From IMG/VR virus record IMGVR_UViG_3300020724_000005: 64,000 nucleotides of DNA. One strand, given 5' to 3'. Shown in pieces: positions 3,397-56,217 of the stretch. Both the position numbers and the translations under genes were made by a program. Every line of letters starts with the position of its first letter. Position 1 is the first letter of the stretch. The notes below the pieces were generated by a model, which was not told the origin of the DNA, made no database searches, and worked only from the letters and a program-made list of their open reading frames with translations. The DNA is from a virus.

Positions 3397-4143
3397 TTAA
3401 ACCTTGCTTATTATTATTTTAAAACCTTCATAATTTGACTTTTCTATTTTAGAAGATGTCAATATTATCTCTCTTATTCCAGATCTGATTTTATTCATAT
3501 CTCCAAAATTAATCTTTAACTCTTTCTTTGCTGTTGTTATTTTATCAAATTTCTTTATTAGATCTCCATCTTGATTATATAAATATGCAAATCCTAACCA
3601 TTTATAATTCTTATCTCCTTTTTTACATTCACTCCATTTTTTCCTATATTCTGGATTACTAAGTATATCTTTCATTTTATCTGAGAATTTTTTTAGATTC
3701 TCTTCATTTTTCCAATATGCATCCACTCCATTTTTTACGCTAGTTCTATACTCATCGTCTTTCCATAAATTTTTAGAAATATCAACAAATTTATGTCGTA
3801 AAATATCTTTATTAGTATTTGATGCATTTCGTAATTTTTCTCTATGCTCTTCTTTATTTGGATGATTTGTAAAATTATCTCCACCATCCCCTCCTGTAGA
3901 AATATTATAACCAATTTCTGGATTTGTAGAATTATAATAGCTGATCCAATATTGCTCTTTTATATTTAATTCCTCAATAGAAGAGCTATGATCTAATACG
4001 CCCTTTTTGAACTTATCTCGACCATAGCTCTTTATAGCATCTTTTATTTTTACTCCAGATCCAAGATAGCTTGGATCATTTTTTGTGTCTTTACCTATAT
4101 AAATTTTTCCTGATTCTAAATTTGTAGTCTTATAAATTATCAT
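3397..4143 (-). CDS. GIY-YIG homing endonuclease (free-standing)
   Basis: N-terminus MIIYKTTNLESGKIYIGKDT...YLGSG; conserved EQYW and GYNISTGG. The insert is very AT-rich compared with its neighbours. Confidence 0.85.
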   Translation of the reverse strand: MIIYKTTNLESGKIYIGKDTKNDPSYLGSGVKIKDAIKSYGRDKFKKGVLDHSSSIEELNIKEQYWISYYNSTNPEIGYNISTGGDGGDNFTNHPNKEEHREKLRNASNTNKDILRHKFVDISKNLWKDDEYRTSVKNGVDAYWKNEENLKKFSDKMKDILSNPEYRKKWSECKKGDKNYKWLGFAYLYNQDGDLIKKFDKITTAKKELKINFGDMNKIRSGIREIILTSSKIEKSNYEGFKIIISKV

Positions 4144-4188: not shown

Positions 4189-4872
4189 TTATATATTAAT
4201 TTCACAACTATTTCCAGCACACGCAACTTGGTCCTTAAGGTCTGTGTTGTCTTCTGCCTCTACCACCAAGCTCAGATCTATGTTAGAAAGCGACTCCATC
4301 ATTTTTTCGTAAGTCTCTTTATCGCAGTCTTGGAAAGGTGCCTGAACGTAGGTGTGGTCTGAGAATGGCAGCACTGAAAGCCCGTTGTAGCAAGTCCTGT
4401 TCTCCCACATCCACTCTCCTACAGTGTCCCACTCTCCGTCCTTTATAGAGATCGTGGCCGAGATGTTGTGTGTGTTCTGTCCTGTCTTGTGTCCTGGTTT
4501 GATCCAGTTGTTGTAGAAGTATTTTACCCTCTCGAGCAGATCTATCGCTGACTCTGTCCTCAGTATCGAACCCTCTGGCGCTTTCTGTGGGACCGAGATG
4601 ACTGCCGTGCTGTGGGGCTTGAAGTACTCGTCCTGTATCAGCTCTGGGTGGTATATGCTCAGGTACGTGTATATGGCCTCGTTCTTGCCAACTCTTATGT
4701 TTCTGATGTAGTACTCGCTGTGCCACGCATGTATGCCAGAAGATGTGCCCAGGACTAGAGAGGAGGTATTATGAACCACAGATTTATTTTTTAGTTGATA
4801 TGAATGAGTATTATCTACTTCTATGTCAACAGTAAATTTATTTCCAGACTTTGTTATTTTTTTAATTTTCAT
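4189..4872 (-). CDS. nrdJ: ribonucleotide reductase class II, C-terminal fragment preceded by a split-intein C-fragment (35 aa)
   Basis: MKIKKITKSGNKFTVDIEVDNTHSYQLKNKSVVHN then T(+1)SSLVLGTSSGIHAWHSEYYIRNIRV. Intein blocks F and G end in HN. The extein continues the RNR motif KPSG|TSS. Confidence 0.85.
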   Translation of the reverse strand: MKIKKITKSGNKFTVDIEVDNTHSYQLKNKSVVHNTSSLVLGTSSGIHAWHSEYYIRNIRVGKNEAIYTYLSIYHPELIQDEYFKPHSTAVISVPQKAPEGSILRTESAIDLLERVKYFYNNWIKPGHKTGQNTHNISATISIKDGEWDTVGEWMWENRTCYNGLSVLPFSDHTYVQAPFQDCDKETYEKMMESLSNIDLSLVVEAEDNTDLKDQVACAGNSCEINI

Positions 4873-6007
4873 AATATTTAATTAATTCTATTATATTTTC
4901 TAATACTAATTGCTTATTTTTTAAATAATTTGATTCTTTAACTCTAATTAAATTTAATCCCATATTAGCATATATCTTATCCTTTAATCTATCTCTCTCT
5001 ATATTATTAGGTAAAGAATGCCAATAATCTCCATCAAATTCAATTACAGTATTTCCTATTTTAATGTCTGGTACTATACACTTTATTTGATAATCATTCT
5101 GGTTTAGATTTATAAAATAGGGTTTTGTTATTGGGTAACCAAAAAATACCTCTTTTTGTTTATTGTTTAATAAATCATATAGTGATAAATTAAAATCTTT
5201 TTCTATATTTGAACTAAAATCTGGAAAATAACTAATTTTCTTTTTTATCATATCAGAATATAAATTCCGACCCTCTACTTCTCCAAATTTATCTATATAA
5301 TATTCTAATCTTCCAGATTTTCCTTTACTATAACATAATTCTTTATATCTATTTAAGCCTTCAATTTTTCCAAATTTAGAGATATAATAGTCTTTAGTCT
5401 GTGAATATGCTATTTTTTTATTAGCCTCATCATATTTTTCCTTTCCTATATTATCACCATACTTTTTTATATAATAATCTAACCCTCTTGATTGATTCTT
5501 ATTAACAAACTGTTTAGCTTCTAATTCACTTACTCCATAATATTTCATTACAGATTTATAATCTCTACAAGAATACCCACTGTCTATTTTCTTTTTATAT
5601 CTTAATCTACCCTCTTTTTCTCCATATTTTTTTATCATGCTTTCCAAGTCAGTCTTTGAATTAATAGAGTGTTTTGCTTTAATGTCTTTTATTTCATCAT
5701 CACTATATCCATTTAATTTTAAAGCATTTATACTAACTGAAAGTTTACTATTTTTTTCTAAATATTCCTCTCTACCTAACTCCTCCCCGTATCTTTTAAT
5801 GAATCCATTTAGGGTATTTTTAAACTTATCATTTTCTATTTTTTGTTTATATTTAAATAAGCCTAACTCTTTTCCGTATTTAAACTGTAATACTTTTAAA
5901 GAAGACCCTCGCATTAAATTTGCACATCTCTTGTTGCCCCCCTCTTCTCCAAGTAGATGAATCAGTAGTCGTCTCAGTCTATTAATCTTTTTTATATCTT
6001 TTTTCAC
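4862..6007 (-). CDS. homing endonuclease with a Vsr/DUF559-like nuclease domain (GTG start)
   Basis: The C-terminus reads IEFDGDYWHSLPNNIERDRLKDKIYANMGLNLIRV. About seven KYG-x-x-x-G-x-x-x-Y repeats lie upstream. It is very AT-rich and sits between the two nrdJ halves. Confidence 0.7.
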   Translation of the reverse strand: MKKDIKKINRLRRLLIHLLGEEGGNKRCANLMRGSSLKVLQFKYGKELGLFKYKQKIENDKFKNTLNGFIKRYGEELGREEYLEKNSKLSVSINALKLNGYSDDEIKDIKAKHSINSKTDLESMIKKYGEKEGRLRYKKKIDSGYSCRDYKSVMKYYGVSELEAKQFVNKNQSRGLDYYIKKYGDNIGKEKYDEANKKIAYSQTKDYYISKFGKIEGLNRYKELCYSKGKSGRLEYYIDKFGEVEGRNLYSDMIKKKISYFPDFSSNIEKDFNLSLYDLLNNKQKEVFFGYPITKPYFINLNQNDYQIKCIVPDIKIGNTVIEFDGDYWHSLPNNIERDRLKDKIYANMGLNLIRVKESNYLKNKQLVLENIIELIKYYEN

Positions 6008-6008
6008 A

Positions 6009-6058
6009 ATTAAGCCTTTTATTATAAATATCTGATTAATTACAATAATAGGCTTAAT
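6009..6058 (-). promoter_or_regulatory. 9-bp hairpin abutting the HEG start, with the motif in its loop
   Basis: ATTAAGCCT (6009..6017) pairs with AGGCTTAAT (6050..6058). The loop contains ATAAATATC (6024..6032). In the transcript sense the 3' arm ends 1 nt before GTG 6007. Confidence 0.45.
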
Positions 6059-6071
6059 AGTAAAAATTAAT

Positions 6072-7682
6072 CTAATAATTTATAATATCATCATCATCCT
6101 TCAATTCGTCTGCTCTAACCCACCCCCTATTTTTAGTTAAAAACCTATGATTTGCTGTAACTGTAACTACCAAACCATCTTCAAACTCCACATCAAACGT
6201 TTCTTCTACTCCATTAATGTATAATTTATTAATTTGTTGCCATTCATCATTTAAATCTTTGACTTTTATATCCTCTGTTACTTCTAAAAATAGCTTTTCG
6301 TTATTTTTAAAATCAGATAAGTCATATCCATTGATTTTAAAAATATCCTCTAATGAGAGAATACCTTTATTTGTTATTATTTCAGTTTCTGGTATCATGC
6401 ACCCACTCGGTTTTATTGTAGTGCAACGGGCTGCTGCGTTTATCCCTACCGCTTTCGCTACTGCTGCGTTCGTCTCTTTCACTATGAGAGCGGCCTTTTT
6501 AAGATCCAGCTTCTGAGCAACTCCTGACCCTATTCCAGTCATTCCTACTCCTATTAGTGCTTCTTTCTCTGTAGTCTTCTGCCATATTGGTCTGAGATAG
6601 TGAAAGTTAGTGTATCCTGCTTGTAAAGTCCCTATTATCGCTGCTGCATTTACTCTGTCATTAAGATCTTCTTGGTCTACTACGTCTGAAACATTTACCT
6701 CGCAAAGGTTGCAAAATTGATATGGTCTTAGTGCAATTTCCATACAAGGATTACTTCCTAAATCTTTATCATTACTAAGAAATATACCCGGTTCTCCTGA
6801 TCCCGAGTTCTCAATCTTCTTCCAGAGATCCATAAAGAATTCCTTTGTAAGTCTATTCCTTAAAAGTACAGCCGAGTTATTCGCTCTACCCCTTTGCGGA
6901 TTTAATTCCCACCATTGACCAGTCTTACAAGAGATCATATCCTCATCGTCAGCTGAGAATAGTGATACTAATGCCGCTCTCCTTATACCCCCAGCAAGTA
7001 CTGCATCAGCTATGTGGCAGACCATGTCGTGAACCTCTATCGAGCTGAGTTTATCTCCATCCTCTTTCTGGCTGAGTATTCCATCTAACATTAGTAAGCA
7101 CTCTTTCAGTGGTTGAGGACCTGGAGCTTTACCGCCAGAAGTAACTAGCATTGCTCCTTTTGGACGTATGTCAGAGAAGTCAAAGTTAATCGATGATCCA
7201 CCTCTGAAATAGGACTTGATCAGGGCTTTGACTGCGTCTGCCCAACCCTCTATCGAGTCTCCTATCAGGAACCTTGTGTGCTTCTTTGGGTTCGGTTTCC
7301 TTATCTCTGGCAGCTTCTCAACGTGGTGCTTCTGTACAGAGAAACCTACTCCCGTGCCACCAAGCAGCAGGAACATCGTCTCAGAGAAAGCGTGTATGTC
7401 GTCTATAGGAAGGTACGCGCAGTTATACACTCTGTTAGGAGATATCTCTATCGACTTTCCACCGAACTGCAGGCTCCTCATAGAAGGAAGCACCTTTTTA
7501 TCATATACGAATTCATAAGCCCAGTCTATCTCAGCTTGCATATTGGGATATTTCTTGAGATGCATTGCCTTGTTTCTGTCTACCAATTCTTCCCAAGACT
7601 CTCTCTTCTGTAGTTCTGGGAGGTATTTGGAATATTTTAAGTGTACTGTAATATCTGATAATATTTCCTGTGAGATATTCAT
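6072..7682 (-). CDS. nrdJ: ribonucleotide reductase class II, N-terminal fragment fused to a split-intein N-fragment (109 aa)
   Basis: RNR-like body (SLQFGG, NPCMEIAL, TTIKPSG) followed by CMIPETEIITNKG...TANHRFLT...IINY and a stop. Confidence 0.85.
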   Translation of the reverse strand: MNISQEILSDITVHLKYSKYLPELQKRESWEELVDRNKAMHLKKYPNMQAEIDWAYEFVYDKKVLPSMRSLQFGGKSIEISPNRVYNCAYLPIDDIHAFSETMFLLLGGTGVGFSVQKHHVEKLPEIRKPNPKKHTRFLIGDSIEGWADAVKALIKSYFRGGSSINFDFSDIRPKGAMLVTSGGKAPGPQPLKECLLMLDGILSQKEDGDKLSSIEVHDMVCHIADAVLAGGIRRAALVSLFSADDEDMISCKTGQWWELNPQRGRANNSAVLLRNRLTKEFFMDLWKKIENSGSGEPGIFLSNDKDLGSNPCMEIALRPYQFCNLCEVNVSDVVDQEDLNDRVNAAAIIGTLQAGYTNFHYLRPIWQKTTEKEALIGVGMTGIGSGVAQKLDLKKAALIVKETNAAVAKAVGINAAARCTTIKPSGCMIPETEIITNKGILSLEDIFKINGYDLSDFKNNEKLFLEVTEDIKVKDLNDEWQQINKLYINGVEETFDVEFEDGLVVTVTANHRFLTKNRGWVRADELKDDDDIINY

Positions 7683-8014: not shown

Positions 8015-9400
8015 TTACTTGGAAAGTTCAAAGAATTTCTTACTCAGTATGGATTTCTCTTCAAAAGTCAGACTAGAGCTGTTAGAGGTTTTGAAAGCGT
8101 TGTTCGTAGCTGCCTGCATTGCGTGTATCTCTTCTTCTGTTAGCTCTGTCTCATCTATCTTTATCGTACCGTTGTCCGTGTCGATCATCGCATTGTACGT
8201 CATACCGTCTTGTCCATATCGATTTTTCATGATGTGCACTCTACCTGTCTTGTTGAGTTTGTCTGCTCTCTTTCTGGACAGAGACAGTATGAAGTCTGCG
8301 ATCATGATCTTGTTGTACGATCCTGCTGCCTTGTCACCTTCTACGATGTCATCCTTTGCCCCAGCCCTGTTCACCTGAGACACAGACCATACGGGAATGT
8401 TCAGCTCTCTTGCCATGCCTTTCACCGCGGTGTACACGTCATCTATCTCGTCCTTTACTTCTCCTCCGACCCTTTTTGACTTCAATAGGTCTATGTAGTC
8501 GATGATGATCAGATCAGGTTTGTGTCCCATGTCGGTGCACTTCCTTATGTGAGACTCTATCTTGTTGACTGTGGTCTTGCCCATTGGGAACTCAGCTATC
8601 GTCAGTCTGCCTGGTAAGTTTGCTACTGTCTCTTCTACCTTGCTACGATGCAGGTGGACTTCCTTGAAACCTATGCCGGTGAACACAGAATCGTACCTCT
8701 TGCCTGTGTAGATGTCTGAGAGCTCTAGCGTGTAGTGGTTGACAGTGAGCGCCTGCTTGACTGCCTCAGCTCCTATGTTGACCAGAAACCAAGACTTGCC
8801 TGAGCCTGGTCCTCCGAATATTATGCCAAGGTCTCCTCTTCCAAGTCCTCCCATGAGATGATCGCTTATCTTTGGCCATGGAGTAGGCACTGCCCTTCTG
8901 TCGTCTTCTCTGTACCTCTGCTCTATGTCTTGCAAATACTCGTGTCCTACGTTCTTGTCTGCACCGGCTTTTAACGCAGAATCTATCATGATCCTTATGT
9001 CTTCAAACTGGCCTTTGGAAAGCAGATCTACGGAATTGAGTAGCGCCTTCTTTAATTGCTGGTTCTTGCAGAAGCTTGAGAACTCCAGTTCTATGTACTC
9101 CTTGTCTTCGTTCGCCGTCTTTAACGCCTCTTTCAACTGCTCTGCTACCGAGACCCTGAGGACCTCGTTGTCTATCTTTTTGACTTCTATCTGAAGATAT
9201 TCTAGTGACGGTGTGGTATGATATTTGTAATAATACTTTAGAATGTCTTTGACTATCCACTGTGACGCCGGCGAATCGAACATCTCTGGCTCTACAACGT
9301 CGTGTATCGTCTGTAGGAACTCTTTATGACGTAAAAGTGAAGCAAGAACTTTTATTTGAAATCCACTTCCATACGCGTTGAGCGTGTTTAATTGTGCCAT
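8015..9400 (-). CDS. replicative DNA helicase (DnaB / T4 gp41-like)
   Basis: Walker A GGPGSGKSWFL, Walker B LIIIDYIDLL, and SQVNRAG. I chose ATG 9400 (MAQLNTLNAYG) so the gene does not overlap the upstream HEG. Confidence 0.85.
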   Translation of the reverse strand: MAQLNTLNAYGSGFQIKVLASLLRHKEFLQTIHDVVEPEMFDSPASQWIVKDILKYYYKYHTTPSLEYLQIEVKKIDNEVLRVSVAEQLKEALKTANEDKEYIELEFSSFCKNQQLKKALLNSVDLLSKGQFEDIRIMIDSALKAGADKNVGHEYLQDIEQRYREDDRRAVPTPWPKISDHLMGGLGRGDLGIIFGGPGSGKSWFLVNIGAEAVKQALTVNHYTLELSDIYTGKRYDSVFTGIGFKEVHLHRSKVEETVANLPGRLTIAEFPMGKTTVNKIESHIRKCTDMGHKPDLIIIDYIDLLKSKRVGGEVKDEIDDVYTAVKGMARELNIPVWSVSQVNRAGAKDDIVEGDKAAGSYNKIMIADFILSLSRKRADKLNKTGRVHIMKNRYGQDGMTYNAMIDTDNGTIKIDETELTEEEIHAMQAATNNAFKTSNSSSLTFEEKSILSKKFFELSK

Positions 9401-9407
9401 AACTTTA

Positions 9408-10127
9408 TTATATATTTGGTTTTTTATATTTGCACTTATCAAAATGCCACTGAGTCATTCCGTTATTTCCTCCAATTTTATTACAATGCGGACATTGTAT
9501 TTTTGGATTTTTTATTCCTAATCTATTAGTATTTCCTATTTTAGATATGCTCAATTTTCTTTTATGTTCTTCTGATTTAGATTTTCCCTTAAGAGCTCTG
9601 CTAATATTTGCCTTCTCTAATTCTGATTTTACTCTATTTTTTTGACCTTTAGAAATTGATTCTCTATGTTGTAAAGATAAACATATCCCTAATTTAGATT
9701 TTCTTATATTTAATTTAGTTTCTTCTGATCTTACTTTTCCCGTATTCGATTCTTTCATCTTTTTTTTAGTATCATCAGAAACTAAATGGCCTTTTCTGGA
9801 TAATCTATATAATCGTTTTGTTTCTTCAGAATGTTTAAAACCAAATTGACCTTGTCCACCATCTGTCATATTAACTAAAGGTCCCAATTTAAGATCTGCT
9901 CTTCCATAGAATATAATCCAAAATTTTTCTTTTTCACAGGCTTCTTCCCAAGTTAACCATTCTTCTGACATAATTTCTACTTTATATTCTGTAAGATTAA
10001 TCACATTATTCCAATGAATATTTCTGTTCTTTTTTGAATAAGATCTTTTATAGTTTTTATCTGATCCTATTCCTATATAAAAAACCTCATTCTTGTCTAG
10101 TCTTATATGACGATACACATATGCCAT
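9408..10127 (-). CDS. GIY-YIG homing endonuclease with NUMOD3-like repeats and a C-terminal CPHC zinc finger
   Basis: MAYVYRHIRLDKNEVFYIGIGSD; repeats HSEETKRLY, SDDTKKKMK, SEETKLNIR, SEEHKRKLS; C-terminus CPHCNKIGGNNGMTQWHFDKCKYK. AT-rich. Confidence 0.85.
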   Translation of the reverse strand: MAYVYRHIRLDKNEVFYIGIGSDKNYKRSYSKKNRNIHWNNVINLTEYKVEIMSEEWLTWEEACEKEKFWIIFYGRADLKLGPLVNMTDGGQGQFGFKHSEETKRLYRLSRKGHLVSDDTKKKMKESNTGKVRSEETKLNIRKSKLGICLSLQHRESISKGQKNRVKSELEKANISRALKGKSKSEEHKRKLSISKIGNTNRLGIKNPKIQCPHCNKIGGNNGMTQWHFDKCKYKKPNI

Positions 10128-10137
10128 AAAATAAAAA

Positions 10138-10232
10138 TGGTCCAAAGTGACAAAGAGCCTGCATGCTCTCTATCTCAAAGGACCAATAAGTTCTATTATA
10201 GATAACTCATGCAGGAGCTTCTATCTATAATA
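10138..10232 (-). promoter_or_regulatory. structured HEG leader (copy 1): two hairpins with complementary loops enclosed by a long-range helix
   Basis: Hairpin S1 pairs 10194..10204 with 10222..10232. Its loop CTGCAT is complementary to loop ATGCAG of hairpin 2 (stem 10154..10158 with 10165..10169). The outer helix pairs TGGTCC (10138..10143) with GGACCA (10180..10185). Confidence 0.6.
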
Positions 10233-10237
10233 AATAT
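10230..10237 (-). promoter_or_regulatory. GATATTTAT(A/T)A-type motif copy
   Basis: ATAAATATC overlaps the 5' arm of leader hairpin S1, 102 nt upstream of ATG 10127. Confidence 0.4.
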
Positions 10238-11133
10238 CAGGAAATACTTGCTAAATACTTAAAGTTTGTGTATAGCCACGAAGGTAGGTTTGTGATGCTC
10301 TGTCCCAGTTGATCTTCGTTATACATCTCTGTAAACTCTGTTGGATAGTAGTCCTTCTTTGGGTTGCCCATCATCTGGTCTATCTCCTCTTGTGCCTCTG
10401 CTGGTATGTTAGGCTCGTCTAGGTCCATGAGCTTCTTGTTGATCTCTAGCTGGCTTCTGAAGTCGTAGATCTTTTTGAGCATTGCAACATCGCCGTCCTT
10501 GCACTTCTCTATGACATGCTCTAGACTGATAGTAGCACTTTTTCCTAACTCTGGAAAGTGTTTAAGCAAAGTCTTGATGCCTAATCCCTTTACCCCAGGA
10601 ACGTTGTCTCCTTTGTCGCCAAGCAGCACCTTCTGGGTTAGAAAGTTGTGAGACGTCACTTCGTACTCGCTCAAGACGTCTTTTGGAGAATAGAACTTCT
10701 TCTTTGTAGGTGAGTATATGCTGATCCTGTCCGATGCAAGCTGAAGGTAATCTCGGTCCGAAGACATGATGGTCACCTCTTTTCCTATGCGCTTTGCTAT
10801 GTATCCTATGACATCGTCTGCCTCTATCTTGTCTATCGATAGCAGATCTATGGGAAGACATTTGAGGTAGTCCACGAGCCTCAGAAGCTGGTTCTTGATG
10901 GCATCAGACTCCTCTTCTTGGGAATCGAACATGTCCCAGTTTGTGATTCTCTTTATACCCCTATTTGCTTTGTACTCAGGATAGAGGTAACGCTTATTTG
11001 TTGAGCTACCGCGGCCATCAAATACTACTATGACACGTGTTGGTCTTATCAGTCTCATCCCATATGCCATCGACTTGAGAAACCCAGTTAGAGCTCCTAT
11101 GTGCTGTCCAGCTGGGTTCACGTGCTGGATCAT
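10237..11133 (-). CDS. flap endonuclease / 5'-3' exonuclease, main segment (as listed in the ORF track)
   Basis: VVFDGRGSSTNKRYLYPEYKANR, EADDVIGYIA, SSDRDYLQL, LLGDKGDNVPGVKGLGIKT. The N-terminal DG strand is missing from this ORF and lies upstream, across an in-frame TAA. Confidence 0.85.
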   Translation of the reverse strand: MIQHVNPAGQHIGALTGFLKSMAYGMRLIRPTRVIVVFDGRGSSTNKRYLYPEYKANRGIKRITNWDMFDSQEEESDAIKNQLLRLVDYLKCLPIDLLSIDKIEADDVIGYIAKRIGKEVTIMSSDRDYLQLASDRISIYSPTKKKFYSPKDVLSEYEVTSHNFLTQKVLLGDKGDNVPGVKGLGIKTLLKHFPELGKSATISLEHVIEKCKDGDVAMLKKIYDFRSQLEINKKLMDLDEPNIPAEAQEEIDQMMGNPKKDYYPTEFTEMYNEDQLGQSITNLPSWLYTNFKYLASIS

Positions 11134-11279: not shown

Positions 11280-11843
11280 TTAATTTTTATATTTACAATT
11301 ATCAAAATGCCACTGGATCATATTACTCTTATTTGCTATTTTTTTACAATGCGGACATTGGGCCAAAGGCCTATTTTTAGCAGATTCACTTTGTGCAATT
11401 TTAGTTTTTTCTGATGTTTTTAATTCTTTATTCCACGTATTCATTCCAATGAAAAATGATCCTGAATTTACTTTATGTGGAAATTTTTTATCTTTATTCC
11501 ATGGAATTCTATTTTTAATACTTTCAATATAGCATTGTTTAGCTTCTACTGATATTCTTATACTATGTCTACCTGTATTTTTATCTTTAATGCACATTAA
11601 ATGAAAAGCATATGTTAATTTTTTATTTTCAGGAAAACTTCTATGTAATAACCAGTGCGCTAATATATGCTCTCTAATAGTTAATAAAACTATATTTTTA
11701 TTGTTTGTATTTCTTCTATCACCAATTCCTCCCAAACATATTGGCACTATGTGATGAGACTCGTAATAAACCTCTTTATTTTTTGTTCTTTTCTCCAATT
11801 TACATTTGCAGACTAATCTATTATATATTTTTAAGTAATCCAT
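11280..11843 (-). CDS. HNH homing endonuclease with a C-terminal CPHC zinc finger
   Basis: MDYLKIYNRL...YYESHHIVPICLGG...NIVLLTIREHILAHWLL; C-terminus CPHCKKIANKSNMIQWHFDNCKYKN. I chose ATG 11843 by analogy with the paralogue at 45814. Confidence 0.85.
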   Translation of the reverse strand: MDYLKIYNRLVCKCKLEKRTKNKEVYYESHHIVPICLGGIGDRRNTNNKNIVLLTIREHILAHWLLHRSFPENKKLTYAFHLMCIKDKNTGRHSIRISVEAKQCYIESIKNRIPWNKDKKFPHKVNSGSFFIGMNTWNKELKTSEKTKIAQSESAKNRPLAQCPHCKKIANKSNMIQWHFDNCKYKN

Positions 11844-11852
11844 AAAATAAAA

Positions 11853-11953
11853 TGGACTCATTGAAGTCAAAGGTCGGGCAATGACCAATGATTCTAGAGT
11901 CCAATAAGTTTATTATAGATAGTTAATTGCCCTAACTTTCTATCTATAATAAA
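11853..11953 (-). promoter_or_regulatory. structured HEG leader (copy 2)
   Basis: Hairpin S1 pairs 11909..11922 with 11940..11953 (14 bp). Its loop GGGCAAT is complementary to loop ATTGCCC of hairpin 2 (stem 11872..11875 with 11883..11886). The outer helix pairs TGGACTC (11853..11859) with GAGTCCA (11897..11903). Confidence 0.6.
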
Positions 11954-11963: not shown

Positions 11964-13046
11964 TTAAGAATCTTCAATATCAAATATATCATTTTTTGAT
12001 GGATCCTCTTCTTCTACAATATCAAATATCTCAGAACCTAGCGCCTTTATCCACTCATGCGAATATTCATTTTTATATTTACTTATCGCTGATGGAGAAT
12101 CATCAATAAAACCATGCACTGTCATTATAACTTTGCCTACAGCTGTAACTCCAGTTATGTGATTTTTATCGCATGAAATTCTAGTTCTCTTAGCAAATTC
12201 CACGTCTTTTCCATTTTTTGTAGCTTTTATTTTATTAGTCCCCGCCTTTGAAATATTCCCGAAAGTGATTACAAGAGTAGAGTCAAACCACATAGTATTA
12301 CCTCCTTTATTTTGTAAAGTTGGTTGTCCCATTGGATTATCTGGTTTTGCTACCCAAACTTTATTTATTGCTACAAGTGTATTGGTGTAGGGTTGGCTCT
12401 CCTTTCTCGACATAATGATACGTTGATTGATGAAGTTGCCAAATTGAGTCGACATAGCACCTGCAGCCCACTCATTATTATTAGTGGATTTTTCTATGCT
12501 CAGACGACAAGGTATAGACCCCACCGAGTCCCACAGAAAGCATATGTCATACGGTAGATTGCCTTTCTTCTGCTCGTCTAAGATGTCTGCCATAAATCCC
12601 GCCACGTCCTCTACGCACTGCATCTTTTCCCTGTCTACGTATATGAAGAAGCCACTGTAATCTACCACTTCTCCTGTTGACTTATCGACGACCTCATCAA
12701 ATTGTAAACCCATTGACCTTGCGTGCTCCCAAGACCATTTCATCTCGGTAACTATAAACACTGGGAGTATGCCCATCTTTTGAGCTTGCACTGCTGCTTC
12801 TAATAGCGCAGTAGTCTTGCCAGTATCTGAGTGTCCTCGTAGTAGAGTGATGTGTCCTATCGGTATGCCAGGGATCTGAAGTGTATCACTGAAAGCCTTG
12901 GAGAGAGGTATCCACCTCGTCTCCTTGAACTTTACAGATGTGCTTGATAGGTTCTTGGACTTCTTGAATTTGTCCAGATTGAATTCGCCTTTGATGGCTG
13001 TAGAGAGAGCCCCATTGAGGCTCTCTTTCTTTTCTGATTTTGCCAT
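11964..13046 (-). CDS. RecA-superfamily recombinase/ATPase (UvsX/RadA-like)
   Basis: Walker A GHSDTGKTT, Walker B-like ICFLWDSVGS, 360 aa. It lies next to the SSB gene. Confidence 0.55.
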   Translation of the reverse strand: MAKSEKKESLNGALSTAIKGEFNLDKFKKSKNLSSTSVKFKETRWIPLSKAFSDTLQIPGIPIGHITLLRGHSDTGKTTALLEAAVQAQKMGILPVFIVTEMKWSWEHARSMGLQFDEVVDKSTGEVVDYSGFFIYVDREKMQCVEDVAGFMADILDEQKKGNLPYDICFLWDSVGSIPCRLSIEKSTNNNEWAAGAMSTQFGNFINQRIIMSRKESQPYTNTLVAINKVWVAKPDNPMGQPTLQNKGGNTMWFDSTLVITFGNISKAGTNKIKATKNGKDVEFAKRTRISCDKNHITGVTAVGKVIMTVHGFIDDSPSAISKYKNEYSHEWIKALGSEIFDIVEEEDPSKNDIFDIEDS

Positions 13047-13064: not shown

Positions 13065-13922
13065 TTAGATATTGAAGAGATCATCAATTTTTGCATCGAT
13101 ATCACTCTTCTTTGTGCTCAGTGAAAACGACTTGGTCTCTGCCTTAGTCTCTTTCTTCTTAGGCTTTTCTTCCTGCGTTTCCCAAGAAAGATCTCCGCCT
13201 GGGATCTCTGGAGCGTTGTCTGGTGCGATGACTACCTCTGGCTTGTCTGTCTCCTCTTCTGGGTTCAGGTGTGCTTGTAGCGCTGCCTTCATCTCATCGT
13301 AAGAGTAATGCTTGTACGTATCCAGTGGATTTGGCTGTTCTGTGAGCCACTTCTTGATCTCTGATTCCTTCTCAGACAGAGGAGTCACCTTGCCTCTCAC
13401 CCTTACTTTTGACTGGTTGAAGTTTGTGCCGTTCTGCTCTGGAGATGTCGTCTCGATCGTGATATCGCGTCCAGAGATGGGATCTGTGTAGTCGCCAACG
13501 TCTTCGTCTTCCATGATCGCCAAAAGCTCCATGAAAACCTGCTTGCCGAATTCCCAAAGCATGACGCCTTTGTCTTCTTCGCCACGCACTATCACTGGCA
13601 CCATGACCCTCATCTTTGGTTCCATCTTCCTGGCCAGCTGCCAATCCTCCTTGTTAGAAGACTTACGTAGCTTCTGAGTGAACTCTGCGATCGGATCTTT
13701 CTCTCCATGACACGCTGGAGACATCATCGTCTTGTTGTTGATCCCGTAGTAGATGTAGATCTCCTTGAACGGGTTTGTCTTGTCGAAAACAGACGGGAGT
13801 ATTCTCACCGAGTGTTTGCCTACTGCTGATCTCCATAGAGTCTTGGGTTGATCAGATTTGGAACCCTTTGGGTTCTGAAGTGACGCTAGTCTACTTCTCA
13901 ATGCTGCAACGTCTATTGCCAT
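13065..13922 (-). CDS. ssDNA-binding protein (T4 gp32-like)
   Basis: LWRSAVGKHSVRILPS, MRVMVPVIVRGEEDKGVMLWEFGKQV, and an acidic C-terminal tail DIDAKIDDLFNI. The layout parallels gp32. Confidence 0.6.
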   Translation of the reverse strand: MAIDVAALRSRLASLQNPKGSKSDQPKTLWRSAVGKHSVRILPSVFDKTNPFKEIYIYYGINNKTMMSPACHGEKDPIAEFTQKLRKSSNKEDWQLARKMEPKMRVMVPVIVRGEEDKGVMLWEFGKQVFMELLAIMEDEDVGDYTDPISGRDITIETTSPEQNGTNFNQSKVRVRGKVTPLSEKESEIKKWLTEQPNPLDTYKHYSYDEMKAALQAHLNPEEETDKPEVVIAPDNAPEIPGGDLSWETQEEKPKKKETKAETKSFSLSTKKSDIDAKIDDLFNI

Positions 13923-13982: not shown

Positions 13983-14405
13983 CTATGAAGTCGCCACTAT
14001 CTTGTGTACGAGGGTGTTTAATTTTCGAAATGCGCTGCCTTGCGTCAGGAGCATTGAGTTTCTGTACTCTTGCCAGTTTATAGGGAACTTGTTGTCCATC
14101 ATGCCGTTGTTCAGGCTCATGATCAAGGTATTCAGCGCGTTTATCGTGTAGAGCGTGTTGCTCTCTTTCTTTCTGTGTAGAAGGATCGTGTTGTTCAGCA
14201 TCCGTGTCTCATGTCCTTCGACCTCGATGTTGTATGTGCACATGTACTCGTCAGACTCTGGAGACGTCAACACGAAGATCTTGCTGTATAGGATCTTGTA
14301 TTGGCCGTTTATCTCTGCCAATCTTTCTTCGAGTCTTTCTTTGGGTGTGAAGCTGCAAAAGAGCCTATTCATTAATGAGTCTTGCGTTAACGTGATCGTT
14401 GTCAT
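13983..14405 (-). CDS. hypothetical protein
   Basis: 140-aa track ORF with a motif copy 15 nt upstream. Confidence 0.5.
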   Translation of the reverse strand: MTTITLTQDSLMNRLFCSFTPKERLEERLAEINGQYKILYSKIFVLTSPESDEYMCTYNIEVEGHETRMLNNTILLHRKKESNTLYTINALNTLIMSLNNGMMDNKFPINWQEYRNSMLLTQGSAFRKLNTLVHKIVATS

Positions 14406-14434: not shown

Positions 14435-15739
14435 TTAGTCGAAAAAATAGTCTTTTGAGTGCTTGTGTTTTACCCTGAATCCGTCTTCTTCGAGTATCTG
14501 CTTGACTCTGATGAGGAACTCCTTGCCTTCCTGTACCGAGTAGTCAAACAGGAAGGCGTCGTAGGTTATCAGCACCAGCTGGCTTGTCTTTCCTGACATG
14601 TACTCCCTAAGCCTCTCTATCTTCTGTACATTGTTTTTGGTCTCTAGATTCTGCACCCAATAGTTAAATAGCTTGAGCTTGTTCATCTCTGGATTCTTTC
14701 TGAGCAATGTCCCTGTTGGAAGTATCAATGAACCGTCTCTCTTGTACCTCTTCCAGATCTCGTCTATGAAGTCTCCAAGCTTTGAGAAGAAGGGGAACTC
14801 CTTGTACTGGTCATCTATCCCTCCGTACAACTGCTTAAATGTGATCTCCTTTGATTTATGATACTCCTCTTCTGTCAGCTCTTCCTTGCCAAAGTATATC
14901 TTGCCTAGCTGCATGTGTATCGACTGGTCTTGATCTTCAAACTCGTGTCCTATCTGCCGTGCTATGAGTCTCAAATGATACGAGTCAAAATCGAACTCAA
15001 CCAAATAATCATGTCTTGGAACGAAACACCGTCTGAACTCTCTGGTCTTTGGTACTGCTACGAAGTTTATGCCGTTGAAAGAGTTGGTAGGTCTGCCTGT
15101 GGTGTTGTACATGTTGTAGTACGAGTATACCAGCCCACCTTTTACGAAGCTCCTTTTTGACTGCACTGCGTACGTGTCGTCTAGTGCCTCTTCATCTATG
15201 GCGACGCCCTGCCTCTCTACCCATCCGTATGCCTCACAGGCTCTGTCTAATATACTGTGATCATTCTCAAGGTCAAACAGGGACTGGACTTTGTTATAGA
15301 GACACTGGCACCTCTCGTAGTGCTTCGTTATCGGCAGGATCTCGTTTAGGTTTGGAAGAGCGCCCATCCTCATGTAGAAGTCGCTGTGTATCATCGTATC
15401 GCACTCTAGCTTTGATCCGTCTATACCCTGGTCCATCCTCGTGAAGTTCAGATCTACTGCGTTATCGATCTGGAGAAAGTACGAGTGGAACTTCCTATCG
15501 AGCAAGTAGACTTTCTTGTGCGAGTTTATGAAAGATTGAATCTGGGCTATTTCTAGGCTGAATCCTTCGCTATGGTTTACGGGGAATATGTAACCTTTGG
15601 CTCCATCATTATAGTAGACCAGTGAGCATCTGGATAGCCTAGGATGATACCTGTCTGAAGATGATACTACTTGAATGAAGCACGATTCGCTTGGAGAGAG
15701 CTTTGAGAGCTGCTCTGATGTTTCTATGATAAAGTACAT
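14435..15739 (-). CDS. second, minimal family A-like DNA polymerase paralogue with divergent catalytic motifs
   Basis: TGRPTNSFNGINFVAVPK; motif A FDFDSYHLRLIA; motif B KSKEITFKQLYGG; motif C LITYDAFLFD. No recognisable DxE exonuclease motifs are present. Confidence 0.7.
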   Translation of the reverse strand: MYFIIETSEQLSKLSPSESCFIQVVSSSDRYHPRLSRCSLVYYNDGAKGYIFPVNHSEGFSLEIAQIQSFINSHKKVYLLDRKFHSYFLQIDNAVDLNFTRMDQGIDGSKLECDTMIHSDFYMRMGALPNLNEILPITKHYERCQCLYNKVQSLFDLENDHSILDRACEAYGWVERQGVAIDEEALDDTYAVQSKRSFVKGGLVYSYYNMYNTTGRPTNSFNGINFVAVPKTREFRRCFVPRHDYLVEFDFDSYHLRLIARQIGHEFEDQDQSIHMQLGKIYFGKEELTEEEYHKSKEITFKQLYGGIDDQYKEFPFFSKLGDFIDEIWKRYKRDGSLILPTGTLLRKNPEMNKLKLFNYWVQNLETKNNVQKIERLREYMSGKTSQLVLITYDAFLFDYSVQEGKEFLIRVKQILEEDGFRVKHKHSKDYFFD

Positions 15740-53467: not shown

Positions 53468-54895
53468 TTATCCCAATAGCCAATTCAGATCCTCTATAGT
53501 ATTTCCATTTACTGTAGTGATCTCCATTTGATATGGATTATTATTTATAAAGTTATTTGTATTGTAAACTGGGGATTCTCCCATCTTCTTCATCCCGTCT
53601 AATGTAGCATATGTTAAACTCTCTGCCGTCCTTCTGAATCTTATAGAAGAGTCTCTCATATACATCGATATCGCAAAAGACATCACAAGGTCATCATTGT
53701 ATCCTTGCATTGCTTGTGGTTTTGAGTTCTTCCATATGAACACTCTCAATTCTTCTAAAAGCCTAAGTGATCTTATCTTTACTTGCTTTGTCTCTATGAA
53801 GTCTCTCATCCTCTCTATAATAAGAGGTCTTGATGCTGACGACATAGTGAATCCAGGAACTAATGAGTCTGTTGCTCCGTATCTTTCAAGCCTCTTCTCA
53901 TTGTCTAAACTAAAATCTGTCCTATGCGAGTAGTGTAGGTTACTGTAACCGCTCTCGATCAAAGTCTGAAGAACGTCCCAACCTATGTTTGCATTCTCCA
54001 CAGCGACCAAGGCATTGTTGTACTCGAAAGCCGCTGCCAGTATTGTCTTTGCAAACTCTCTGGTGTCGCACTGGGCTTGGTATTCTGCTACCTGGGTCAA
54101 TGTATCTACGTCTATGATGTGGAACGCGGAATAGTCAGCTCCGTCTCCTCTTGCTACGTCTGCACATAACAGATAGGTTTTTAGAGGGCTTGGGTACTCC
54201 CATATCCACATTGCCTTATCGAGTCCCCTTCTTTCGATAGGCTCTAAGACCATGTTTTCTTCATACCAACTTAGTATGTCTGGGATGATGACAGTATTAC
54301 CCGATGAACTAAAGTCACAATCACACTCTTGCGCAGCCATTCTAACTCCAAGGTCTTGATCTTGTCTATCTCTCCAAGGTTGACTTCTTTCTGGGTGTAC
54401 TGTCCAAGGAAGTGATACTGGTACAAAGCTGTTTTCTTTTTTCTGCGCTTTTATATATGTTTTGTGGAACCAATTACCTACGCCGTTTGGAGTCGATAAT
54501 GCTATACATTTACCACCGGTTGCCAAGGTTTGCTGAGCAGAACCAAAAAGATCCTCTGCATTATCTATGAAAGCGCAATTATGACTAACTACATCATTTG
54601 TATAATATTCGTTTTTATTCTTTACGTTTACTAAATCATAAACTTCGAATTCTTCTTCTATAATATCAATAGAAATAATAGAAATATTCCCAAATAGTAT
54701 ATCGCCTACTCTCAATAAACACGCTTCTAGAAACTCACCATTTGGAAATTTAAGACAATGCCCCTCTGTACACTTTATAAAAGAATTATTTGATAATTTT
54801 ATATGAAAAATGATATTAGTAATCTTTGATAAAATTCCATCAAAATCACTAAACCCGGTTGGAGTTAAAATTTCATATTTAGTATTTTTTATCAT
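53468..54895 (-). CDS. terL: large terminase C-terminal fragment preceded by a 106-aa split-intein C-fragment
   Basis: MIKNTKYEILTPTGF...CTEGHCLKF (block B)...EVYDLVNVKNKNEYYTNDVVSHN, then C+1 AFIDNAEDLF, which completes the gp17-like MDE|CAFI Walker B region. A nuclease domain follows. Confidence 0.85.
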   Translation of the reverse strand: MIKNTKYEILTPTGFSDFDGILSKITNIIFHIKLSNNSFIKCTEGHCLKFPNGEFLEACLLRVGDILFGNISIISIDIIEEEFEVYDLVNVKNKNEYYTNDVVSHNCAFIDNAEDLFGSAQQTLATGGKCIALSTPNGVGNWFHKTYIKAQKKENSFVPVSLPWTVHPERSQPWRDRQDQDLGVRMAAQECDCDFSSSGNTVIIPDILSWYEENMVLEPIERRGLDKAMWIWEYPSPLKTYLLCADVARGDGADYSAFHIIDVDTLTQVAEYQAQCDTREFAKTILAAAFEYNNALVAVENANIGWDVLQTLIESGYSNLHYSHRTDFSLDNEKRLERYGATDSLVPGFTMSSASRPLIIERMRDFIETKQVKIRSLRLLEELRVFIWKNSKPQAMQGYNDDLVMSFAISMYMRDSSIRFRRTAESLTYATLDGMKKMGESPVYNTNNFINNNPYQMEITTVNGNTIEDLNWLLG

Positions 54896-55599
54896 TTTAA
54901 AAATTGTCTCATCGATTTTAATAACTGGGGTTGTTCTTCATAATTAATCATATTCGCATTTTTCTTAAACCAACTATCTGAAATTATTACCATTTTATAA
55001 GAATTATCTTTACACCATGATAATGCGCTTTTAAATTTAATTATATTTTTAGGATCCGATTTTAATTTTGATGGTTTTATTTCATATAAAATTTTTTTGT
55101 CAAAATCAACGAAATCTACTATATAAGATGATACTTTATTTTGATATTCATATTGTATTCTTACTTTTTCGTAGTCTAGATGTTGATTTAATAGAAAAAA
55201 TACAGCTTCCCAATTACTTCTGAATTTTTTTATGTCATCTTTAATTTTAATATAGCTTTTCCAATTTGTCCAACTATTAGTTATGCATGGCGTAAATTTA
55301 CCTTCTTTTATAAGTCTCTTTAATCTTATTGAATTCTGTCTTCGTGCTTCTATTACTCTAGGACTACTCTTAATCTTTTCTTTATGTTCCTGTGTCGATA
55401 CAGTTTTTTTATTTGATTCTACTCTTTTTCTTTTTGTTTCTTCTGAATCTTTATGGTGATTATGTGAAGTCCAACATGGTTGAGTACAGTATTTTTTATT
55501 TTCTTTTTTTGTTAAATATCTCTTTCCACATCCGGAACATTCTTTTTCTATAGGTTCTTTCCAATTCCACGAGTGTTTTTTAATATTCTCTATAAACAT
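54892..55599 (-). CDS. homing endonuclease with an N-terminal zinc finger and a PD-(D/E)xK-like C-terminal domain
   Basis: CSGCGKRY...YCTQPCW; NUMOD3-like HKDSEETKRKRVES; C-terminus YIVDFVDFDKKILYEIKPSKL. It is very AT-rich, and its ATGA overlaps the IntC start. Confidence 0.65.
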   Translation of the reverse strand: MFIENIKKHSWNWKEPIEKECSGCGKRYLTKKENKKYCTQPCWTSHNHHKDSEETKRKRVESNKKTVSTQEHKEKIKSSPRVIEARRQNSIRLKRLIKEGKFTPCITNSWTNWKSYIKIKDDIKKFRSNWEAVFFLLNQHLDYEKVRIQYEYQNKVSSYIVDFVDFDKKILYEIKPSKLKSDPKNIIKFKSALSWCKDNSYKMVIISDSWFKKNANMINYEEQPQLLKSMRQFLK

Positions 55600-55610
55600 T
55601 TGCTTTTACT

Positions 55611-55618
55611 ATAAATAT
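55611..55618 (-). promoter_or_regulatory. GATATTTAT(A/T)A-type motif copy
   Basis: ATAAATATC, 11 nt upstream of the HEG ATG 55599. It overlaps the stop of the terL N fragment. Confidence 0.4.
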
Positions 55619-56217
55619 CAATAATGTCCAGATAATTTATTTTTTAATTCATTTATTGTTGTCTTTTCTATTTCGCCAGTATTTTTATTCTTAATTAATA
55701 TTTCAGTATCTCCAGTTACACATTCATCCATCACAAGAAGAGATACTGCTTCAGAACGAGCTGAGTCGCTTGCTCCTGACACTGCCTTTATCTGAGAACC
55801 GTTTGTGAGTCGTAAACTTAGCCTGTTGTCTTCAGTAGCTCCTATCTTCAACCAAGCTGGAAGGTTATCGTATGCAAATCGTACCTTTGTGACCATATTC
55901 TTGGCCGTCTCTTGCTTTGTTGCTATGACCAGTACGTTCTTATCTTTGTGGAATACCATGAGCCAGAGCGCATAAGCAGACACCAACGTTGATATCCCCA
56001 GCTGTCTTGACTTGTTTATTATTACATTTTGGTCTCCTGAAAAGACCTTTAGCATGGATTCTTGGAATGGGTATAGATCAAAGAGCATCCTGCCTCTTTG
56101 AGGGTGTTGGATCATGTAATACTTCTTCATGAAATATACCGGGTCTGTGGCGCATTTCACAAATTCTTCTCGTATCTTATCTTTGATAGTGGATTGCCTC
56201 GTAATCGGTTCGGGCAT
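55618..56217 (-). CDS. terL: large terminase N-terminal fragment (ATPase Walker A/B) fused to a 34-aa split-intein N-fragment
   Basis: KSRQLGISTL (Walker A) and LLVMDE (Walker B), followed by CVTGDTEILIKNK...SGHY and a stop. Confidence 0.85.
   Translation of the reverse strand: MPEPITRQSTIKDKIREEFVKCATDPVYFMKKYYMIQHPQRGRMLFDLYPFQESMLKVFSGDQNVIINKSRQLGISTLVSAYALWLMVFHKDKNVLVIATKQETAKNMVTKVRFAYDNLPAWLKIGATEDNRLSLRLTNGSQIKAVSGASDSARSEAVSLLVMDECVTGDTEILIKNKNTGEIEKTTINELKNKLSGHY

Follow-up and report, generated by a model that had tools for sequence, protein, structure and literature searches.

A divergent divPolA1-type family A polymerase gene with family-wide active-site substitutions in the replication block of an uncultured phage

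Introduction

In well-understood family A DNA polymerases (PolA), the steric-gate Glu of motif A and the HDE triplet of motif C are treated as near-universal. The described system closest to the gene reported here is divPolA1, which was named in a computational description by Yutin et al. 2024 (Virol J 21:200; PMC11348598). According to the text of that paper, 14 immuto-like phage genomes of 155 to 190 kb carry divPolA1, each of them also encodes a regular DNA polymerase (DNAP) from family A, B, or C, and the replication genes downstream of divPolA1 are conserved. The text further describes the palm catalytic residues as kept, the thumb as truncated, and all three Asp residues of the exonuclease (Exo) domain as replaced, and its authors considered polymerase activity to be probably retained. 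Here, we analyzed a stretch of 64,000 nucleotides of viral DNA (IMG/VR record IMGVR_UViG_3300020724_000005), referred to below as the window, in which an open reading frame (ORF) at positions 14435 to 15739 of the minus strand encodes a protein of 434 residues. The gene is a divergent member of divPolA1, which is so far known through computational work alone, and it is very probable that its product is both a divPolA1 member and a real enzyme. As for what the enzyme does, we lean, somewhat, toward accessory short-patch DNA synthesis.

Several other PolA-like proteins invite comparison. CcPol-MP is a primase derived from PolA (PMC7581432). TV-Pol, which also consists of a minimal PolA-like core in viruses (Iyer, Abhiman, and Aravind 2008), is defined by a thumb hairpin, an RxxxK motif, the lack of a nuclease-like domain, and links to D5-like helicases or to resolvases/transposases (PMC2579912). 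The divPolA2 group, as presented in the text of PMC11348598, is likewise an extra, divergent PolA without proofreading found beside a regular DNAP; unlike divPolA1, it starts with an unrelated globular domain, lies in gene contexts that vary, and has structural matches to RNA polymerases (RNAPs). Among the 19 PolA subfamilies set out in the text of Czernecki et al. 2023, divPolA1 does not appear.

Results and Discussion

The predicted structure of the 434-residue protein is that of a PolA

The ORF starts with ATG and encodes an Exo-like N-terminal domain followed by thumb-reduced palm and fingers. Its translation contains TGRPTNSFNGINFVAVPK at residues 214 to 231, DFDSYHLR at residues 250 to 257, KSKEITFKQLYGG at residues 295 to 307, and TYDAFLFD at residues 392 to 399; all the strings quoted in an initial annotation of the window, made from the letters alone, are present. 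Sequence searches suggest a tie to family A polymerases, although weakly. Pfam DNA_pol_A (PF00476) matched residues 202 to 307 with an E value of 9.7e-7, and its score of 28.5 bits missed the curated gathering cut-off of 34.3 bits, while PHROG 15971 ("DNA polymerase I") and PDB chain 8jrb were matched with E values of 9e-4 and 0.03, respectively.

An AlphaFold2 (AF2) model of the protein, for which 24 homologues served as input, reached a mean predicted local distance difference test score (pLDDT) of 89.5 and a predicted template modeling score of 0.88. When the model was compared with the PDB by Foldseek, the best neighbors were the apicoplast polymerase, Klenow, Bst, Taq, and M. smegmatis Pol1, with E values of about 1e-17 and a query template modeling score of up to 0.74 against Klenow. 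The best 50 matches in the PDB and in BFVD were all Pol I-type DNAPs, and no RNAP stood among the best 50 in the PDB. The viral structures of BFVD yielded larger canonical phage PolAs only, with 10 to 16% identity, and no annotated close relative was found in that fold search. Since the predicted structure matches Pol I enzymes where sequence searches are weak, we regard the assignment to PolA as settled; in the model, motifs A, B, and C follow one another in the expected order within a PolA fold.

The relation to divPolA1 was evident from the type protein of the family. Immuto gene 1 aligned with the window protein in a tblastn search with 33.6% identity, 99% query coverage, and an E value of 9e-79, and the family hidden Markov model also matched the immuto-like, Mel-JY01, and LR756508 proteins. 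The window protein shares with the published family full-length homology, the palm residues, the replaced Exo Asp residues, a truncated thumb, the presence of an additional regular DNAP, and the downstream gene block. With 34% identity to immuto divPolA1, however, the window represents a different, uncultured lineage.

Active-site residues are replaced in an unshifted register

To place the catalytic residues, the family profile was aligned to Klenow chains 1d9d/1kfd. In this register, Klenow D705 corresponds to D250, the steric gate E710 to H255, R754 to Y293, K758 to K297, F762 to F301, Y766 to Y305, N845 to N359, Q849 to Q363, H881 to Y393, D882 to D394, and E883 to A395. In the AF2 model, D250 ends a strand that is followed by a helix, and Y393-D394 lie at a beta-turn-beta. 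As these are the canonical places of motifs A and C, we conclude that the register is unshifted. The initial annotation had read E710 as His, R754 as Tyr, and HDE as YDA, had asked for a profile or structure comparison, and had named a shifted alignment as grounds for refutation; the Foldseek search and the Klenow-aligned profile both lead to PolA, and the three assignments stand.

Five motifs were delimited in this way, all on the minus strand. The TGR hairpin, T214-G-R216-P...N225-F-x-A-x-P-K231 (15047 to 15100), is the equivalent of TGR668 and NLQNIP of Klenow and is conserved among family representatives. Motif A, E248-F-D250-F-D-S-Y-H255-L-R (14963 to 14998), keeps the catalytic Asp and has His at the steric gate, and motif B on the O helix, Y293-H-K-S-K297-E-I-T-F301-K-Q-L-Y305-G-G (14819 to 14863), has Tyr for Klenow R754. 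The helix Q motif, N359-Y-x-x-Q363-x-x-E366-T-x-x-N370 (14630 to 14665), includes the equivalents of Klenow N845 and Q849. Lastly, motif C, L390-I-T-Y393-D394-A395-F-L-F-D399 (14543 to 14572), reads YDA in this protein and YDS in most members, compared with HDE in canonical PolA. The two hallmarks of PolA, a Glu steric gate and an HDE motif C, are absent from the protein, in which His255 and Y393-D394-A395 take their places. We also observed that Glu366, three residues past the Q849-equivalent Gln, is invariant in divPolA1, whereas Klenow has Ala at this position; this residue might make up for the Glu that motif C has lost.

Structural and mutational work on Klenow, Taq, and T7 polymerases assigns E710 to the sugar 2' position, R754 to the gamma-phosphate, and E883 to the second shell of the metal site, and changes at R754, E883, and E710 of Klenow lower kcat or alter sugar selection. 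Because the residues changed in divPolA1 lie at these sugar, gamma-phosphate, and second-shell sites, altered sugar or triphosphate handling is plausible. The His gate, Tyr293, and Ser/Ala395 probably have such an effect, which could go in either direction. Use of ribonucleotides or modified deoxynucleotides and lesion bypass, all suggested in the initial annotation, are guesses at this stage.

The substitutions are fixed across a large family under purifying selection

A search of a database of 5.8 billion proteins returned 2,619 homologues with E values of 1e-3 or lower. Nearly all of the best 120 are 431 to 436 residues long, with few truncated or extended, and come from contigs of up to approximately 170 kb. 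An exhaustive profile search of representatives sharing no more than 50% identity identified 1,420 clusters with E values of 1e-3 or lower, of which 631 had values of 1e-30 or lower, compared with the 14 genomes covered in the text of PMC11348598; more than 1,400 clusters at the 50% level are therefore now in view. The conservation figures in the next paragraph refer to 139 near-full-length representatives of clusters that are no more than 50% identical to each other; the 138 with 400 to 480 residues range from 402 to 471, with a median of 440.

Five residues, D250, D394, K297, R216, and E366, are conserved in 100% of these representatives. Q363, P217, and N225 follow with 99% each, H255 and Y393 with 98%, Y305 with 96%, and F301 with 95%. 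Ser accounts for 77% and Ala for 22% of the residues at position 395, and at position 293 Tyr (72%) outnumbers Ile (9%) and Arg (7%). When the gene was compared with its closest relatives, the ratio of nonsynonymous to synonymous substitution rates (dN/dS) was 0.04 to 0.06, with dS already near saturation. Purifying selection on the gene is strong, and its odd active-site residues are fixed features of the family. The initial annotation had proposed to trace the His-gate/YDA variant and had named a decaying pseudogene in relatives as one of the findings that would undo its proposal. The survey shows the His gate and a YD[S/A] motif C to be nearly fixed, and the conserved length, which is about 430 to 450 residues in thousands of homologues, the dN/dS values, and the invariant catalytic residues rule out decay.

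These data also bear on a non-catalytic role, which the initial annotation had kept as an option. As a pseudo-polymerase, divPolA1 would be a scaffold or a DNA-binding subunit, which might be suspected from the substitution of three catalytically relevant residues and from a Pfam score under the curated cut-off. The metal-binding Asp residues, the general-acid Lys, and the minor-groove Arg are nonetheless 100% conserved and the Gln nearly so, which is unexpected for a scaffold, and we consider this reading scarcely credible.

The family thus offers a natural series of substituted active sites, with hundreds of clusters at or below 50% identity in aquatic phage metagenomes in which His, YD[S/A], and Tyr are fixed. 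In the text of PMC11348598, the His gate, the Tyr for R754, YD[S/A], Glu366, and the conservation of the 140-residue neighbor described below are not mentioned, and alignments in its figures may show some of them. That His-gate/YD[S/A] signature, fixed in hundreds of lineages, is a useful detail and has apparently gone unremarked in that text. As a side observation, many entries of the family (homologues P0040, P0056 to P0060, and others) carry the Joint Genome Institute name [quoted passage not shown], which looks like a propagated annotation error.

Proofreading is lost and the thumb is reduced

The N-terminal domain of approximately 130 residues (residues 1 to 130; 15350 to 15739, minus strand) follows, in the AF2 model, the beta-beta-beta-alpha-beta-alpha-beta order of DnaQ-type exonucleases. 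No DxE motif is found in this domain, as the initial annotation had noted; the translation reads YFIIET, compared with FDTET in Klenow, and Ile4 occupies the position of Klenow D355. Further landmarks, read off the sequence, can be matched to the Klenow sequence, with FIIET corresponding to FDTET, YIFPVNHSE (His56) to YIPVAHDY, D-x-K-F to N-x-K-Y, and the conserved Asp96 to the Asp of FDTML. An Ile, Leu, or Val occupies the D355 position in 93% of members, position 85, the likely D424 site, is hydrophobic or variable, and D81 is Asp or Asn across the family. While Exo I and the likely D424 site could be mapped, the Exo III position has no confident mapping. On the basis of the D355 and D424 sites, proofreading has been lost family-wide.

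The distance from the E175-x-x-G178 strand to R216 has a median of 38 residues (range, 20 to 40), compared with 125 in Klenow, suggesting that about 87 residues matching the thumb are missing. The truncated thumb and the divPolA1 identity are points beyond those of the initial annotation. Compared with Pol I large fragments (Klenow, and Taq and Bst with an inactive Exo domain), which are also its best structural matches, divPolA1 has the same layout of Exo-like and polymerase domains and the same order of motifs A, B, and C. It differs from them in being approximately 170 residues shorter, with a nearly absent thumb and 12 to 16% identity, and in carrying His for E710, Tyr for R754, and YD[S/A] for HDE. 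Membership in TV-Pol was ruled out, since 72% of members have YxxxK where TV-Pol has RxxxK, the N-terminal domain is Exo-like, and the associated helicase is of the DnaB type.

Having lost most of its thumb as well as proofreading, divPolA1 is still under strong purifying selection. If active, it would define a minimal PolA as well as tolerated replacements of residues held to be immutable, and it could supply compact polymerases whose sugar selectivity is altered.

Comparison with RNA polymerases and primases

The changes at the sugar and metal sites raise the question of ribonucleotide use. T7-type RNAPs carry HDS in motif C, which resembles the YDS of divPolA1, and the two groups share the Ser after the motif C Asp and the lack of a steric-gate Glu. 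In this light, divPolA1 might be a PolA that tolerates ribonucleoside triphosphates or synthesizes RNA, either as an enzyme that makes or extends primers or as a small RNAP, with H255 at the gate in 98% of members and Ser395 in 77% as its main marks. The text of PMC11348598 raises an RNAP role for divPolA2, and PolA-derived primases exist, as exemplified by CcPol-MP (PMC7581432). Nevertheless, His matches Glu in bulk and could still keep out a 2'-OH, and the sugar and base selectors F301 and Y305 are the canonical residues of DNAPs. Motifs A and B are DNAP-like as well, unlike those of T7-type RNAPs, and the best 50 Foldseek matches were DNAPs without exception. T7-type RNAPs are, moreover, about twice the size of divPolA1 and have promoter-binding and specificity-loop elements; at 434 residues, divPolA1 shows neither a promoter-binding (promoter-recognition) domain nor a specificity loop, and no RNAP neighbors were found.

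DnaG primases that are related to each other are encoded in immuto, Mel-JY01, and LR756508, which also argues against a primer-making or RNA-synthesizing enzyme. On balance, we consider such a ribonucleotide-using divPolA1 unlikely. The window is part of a genome, and with DnaG in those three phages, a role as the sole primase was ruled out as the main explanation.

divPolA1 heads a conserved replication block

Starting from divPolA1, the genes of the block follow one another on the minus strand. The first encodes a conserved protein of 140 residues (13983 to 14405), directly downstream of divPolA1 with a spacer of 29 nucleotides. It is followed by a gp32-like protein that binds single-stranded DNA (SSB; 13065 to 13922), assigned by synteny and by 39% identity to the immuto "ssDNA binding protein", and by a UvsX/RecA-type recombinase (11964 to 13046), with weak NCBIfam RecA/RadB matches and 59% identity to the immuto recombinase. 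Then come a 5'-3' exonuclease or flap endonuclease (FEN; 10237 to 11133; Pfam 5_3_exonuc_N, E = 1.6e-28) and a DnaB-like replicative helicase (8015 to 9442; PHROG 19, E = 1e-74, and Pfam DnaB_C). Beyond DnaB lie a fractured ribonucleotide reductase (RNR) and the regular PolA. Tail and baseplate genes are found upstream of divPolA1, and the remaining window is structural, a gene content that bears out the earlier placement of the gene at the junction of the tail and replication modules.

The same block order was found in approximately 80 IMG/VR loci, in Flavobacterium phage immuto, in Microcystis phage Mel-JY01, and in the 484-kb uncultured phage LR756508; the genome to which the window belongs is of the myovirus type and approximately 160 kb. 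A promoter and terminator scan revealed no terminator-like site between divPolA1 and the next gene on the minus strand and no operon boundary on the strand of divPolA1, and Rfam and transfer RNA scans of the window gave no matches.

divPolA1 accompanies different main polymerases

The regular PolA lies at positions 1 to 2149 on the minus strand and is 53% identical to immuto gene 72. FDTETNS, YACADTD, DYESLEPH, and RNKAKAYALGIPYG are seen in its translation, with Exo I to III and polymerase motifs A and B visible. It had been described as a complete Pol I-like enzyme with an intact exonuclease; the Exo motifs are indeed intact, whereas the window ends within the gene, ahead of motif C, and does not show a complete enzyme. 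At the Klenow F762 position, within RNKAKAYALGIPYG, it has Leu, which we take to be the "Leu762" class of marine virioplankton PolA surveys.

The divPolA1 protein had also been called a paralogue of this canonical PolA, a view that the comparison of the two does not favor. An hhalign comparison of the divPolA1 alignment with the regular PolA alignment found no significant match, and from this profile-profile result we conclude that the two PolAs of the window are not close paralogues. A recent origin from the resident PolA was ruled out by the same null result together with the co-occurrence of divPolA1 with a family B polymerase (PolB). divPolA1 stands beside a regular PolA in the window and in immuto (13000-62000, L002), where the regular PolA adjoins GroES/GroEL. 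Mel-JY01 (58000-107000, L098) instead encodes a PolB and clamp-loader subunits and keeps the divPolA1 block, and no close homologue of the regular PolA of the window was found in it among the matches listed. Since either PolA or PolB, together with DnaG, co-occurs with it, divPolA1 is an addition to a full replisome, whatever the main polymerase.

A proposed accessory role in short-patch synthesis

The features described above are consistent with a compact family A nucleotidyl transferase that would combine a dead Exo-like domain and a shortened thumb with an intact two-metal center (D250, D394, K297, R216, and Q363). We propose that divPolA1 is most likely an active, non-proofreading accessory DNAP of the replication-recombination machinery, with low processivity and a distributive mode of action on DNA substrates. 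Its synthesis would be confined to short patches, for instance at primers or invading 3' ends beside the gp32-like SSB and UvsX, or in gaps filled jointly with the separate FEN. Copying the bulk of the genome would fall to the regular polymerase.

Several points weigh against this accessory role. R754, E883, and E710 are all changed, and the activity could be weak or different in kind. The specific step, whether gap filling or D-loop extension, is conjectural, and the conserved synteny may reflect common descent of one phage clade, not functional coupling. The extent of thumb loss was estimated from sequence spacing, a weak local alignment around E-x-x-G, and the published structural comparison. 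Finally, the literature searched contained no other paper on divPolA1 and no biochemistry for any member.

The constancy of the block could also be read in the opposite sense, with divPolA1 as the real core replicase, the 140-residue protein as a thumb substitute or processivity factor, and the regular A, B, or C polymerases as auxiliaries. As described in the text of PMC11348598, divPolA1 sits in an invariant block and the regular DNAP is swapped among families in variable contexts. Moreover, the 140-residue protein is better conserved than divPolA1 and comes next after it in every close-relative locus. An enzyme without proofreading and with a minimal thumb, however, is a poor fit for genomes of 160 to 480 kb, and Mel-JY01 retains a full set of PolB and clamp loader. 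Within the block, divPolA1 is the fastest-evolving protein, with 53% identity compared with 62 to 75% for FEN, DnaB, and UvsX, and the 140-residue gene also occurs apart from it, as shown below. We therefore consider a core replicase quite unlikely.

A related scenario combines this position with changed chemistry. divPolA1 would then be an invariant core of the replisome that uses ribonucleotides or makes primers, an intermediate between a DNAP and an RNAP or primase, perhaps acting with its 140-residue neighbor. Such a core would explain why the regular polymerase is swapped among families A, B, and C, although we rate the scenario as a doubtful one. More generally, the exchange of the main replicase among these families in related phages may find an explanation in divPolA1 as the one constant polymerase that is kept.

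The 140-residue neighbor and the CcPol-MP comparison

The 140-residue protein is 52% identical to immuto gene 2 and 44% identical to the Mel-JY01 neighbor, compared with 34% and 30%, respectively, for the polymerase. In every locus with enough downstream DNA, its gene is the next after divPolA1, either adjacent or behind an insert of 0.5 to 1.5 kb. We identified 5,065 homologues, with the core HRKKE[ST]NT[LI]YTINALN, and no matches in Pfam, PHROG, or NCBIfam; a search for relatives in bacterial genomes found only contigs of metagenome-assembled genomes that resemble phage DNA. The AF2 model is poor (pLDDT of 64.5) and predicts an alpha/beta order of beta-alpha-beta-beta-beta, for which the PDB held no significant fold match, with weak recurrences of GyrI-like/SOUL folds at E values above 0.1. 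In two distant contigs, the gene adjoins SSB and UvsX and no divPolA1 is seen in the available upstream DNA (1.1 kb in L096 and 3.1 kb in L093). On account of these contigs, the protein's proper association may be with the recombination proteins and not with the polymerase.

A small protein encoded next to a reduced PolA recalls CcPol-MP and other PolA-SSB primases (Bebel 2020; Rice 2023), which share with divPolA1 the reduced N-terminal domain, the short thumb, the small partner gene, and a link to a helicase further on. By this analogy, divPolA1 would be a primase-polymerase to which the 140-residue protein supplies single-stranded DNA binding for starting chains de novo. CcPol-MP, however, keeps E710 and F762, whereas the divPolA1 family has His at the gate, and its partner has an oligonucleotide/oligosaccharide-binding (OB) fold; it is carried by mobile islands of Bacillota, next to serine recombinases and without an accompanying DnaG, unlike the phage relatives considered here. 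No such island context (Cch-type helicase and serine recombinase) was found in the window, which has DnaB and belongs to a phage genome. The model of the 140-residue protein, poor as it is, shows no evident OB barrel and has no significant PDB match, and the analogy was set aside. We consider a CcPol-type primase-polymerase very unlikely.

Immuto encodes a full 7-deazaguanine set (QueC/D/E/F, FolE, and DpdA), and the active-site changes of divPolA1 lie near the sugar and triphosphate, which might suggest a polymerase specialized for modified deoxynucleotides, such as 7-deazaguanine or hypermodified ones. DpdA-type modification is post-replicative, which counts against this idea. No 7-deazaguanine genes were found among the approximately 25 window ORFs scanned against Pfam and PHROGs, the remaining larger ORFs lying outside that scan. 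In addition, none of the changed residues points toward the nucleobase, and the family occurs in phages with diverse sets of nucleotide-metabolism genes. A specialization of this kind appears highly improbable.

Split genes and mobile endonucleases in the window

The fractured RNR spans positions 4189 to 7682 on the minus strand, with an N-terminal part at 6072 to 7682 and a C-terminal part at 4189 to 4872. The N-terminal part ends in TIKPSG and is followed by an intein N-piece that starts with CMIPETE, while the C-terminal part opens with an intein C-piece that ends in SVVHN, directly before TSS. A free-standing endonuclease-like ORF with an REase_MTES_1575 match (4862 to 6007) lies between the halves. 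From these sequence features, the RNR appears to be interrupted by a split intein whose two halves flank a homing endonuclease gene. The terminase large subunit (53468 to 56217, minus strand) also appears to be split, into ORFs at 55618 to 56217 and 53468 to 54895, with an endonuclease ORF (54892 to 55599; PHROG 15427) between the two parts. Three more ORFs of the homing-endonuclease type, with GIY-YIG/NUMOD3 and HNH-like PHROG matches, were observed on the minus strand among the replication genes, at 3397 to 4143, 9408 to 10145, and 11280 to 11888. In five relatives (L007, L008, and L014 to L016), inserts of 0.5 to 1.5 kb separate divPolA1 from the 140-residue gene. Given the interspersed endonuclease ORFs and the inserts in these relatives, mobile endonuclease genes seem to have a hotspot in this block.

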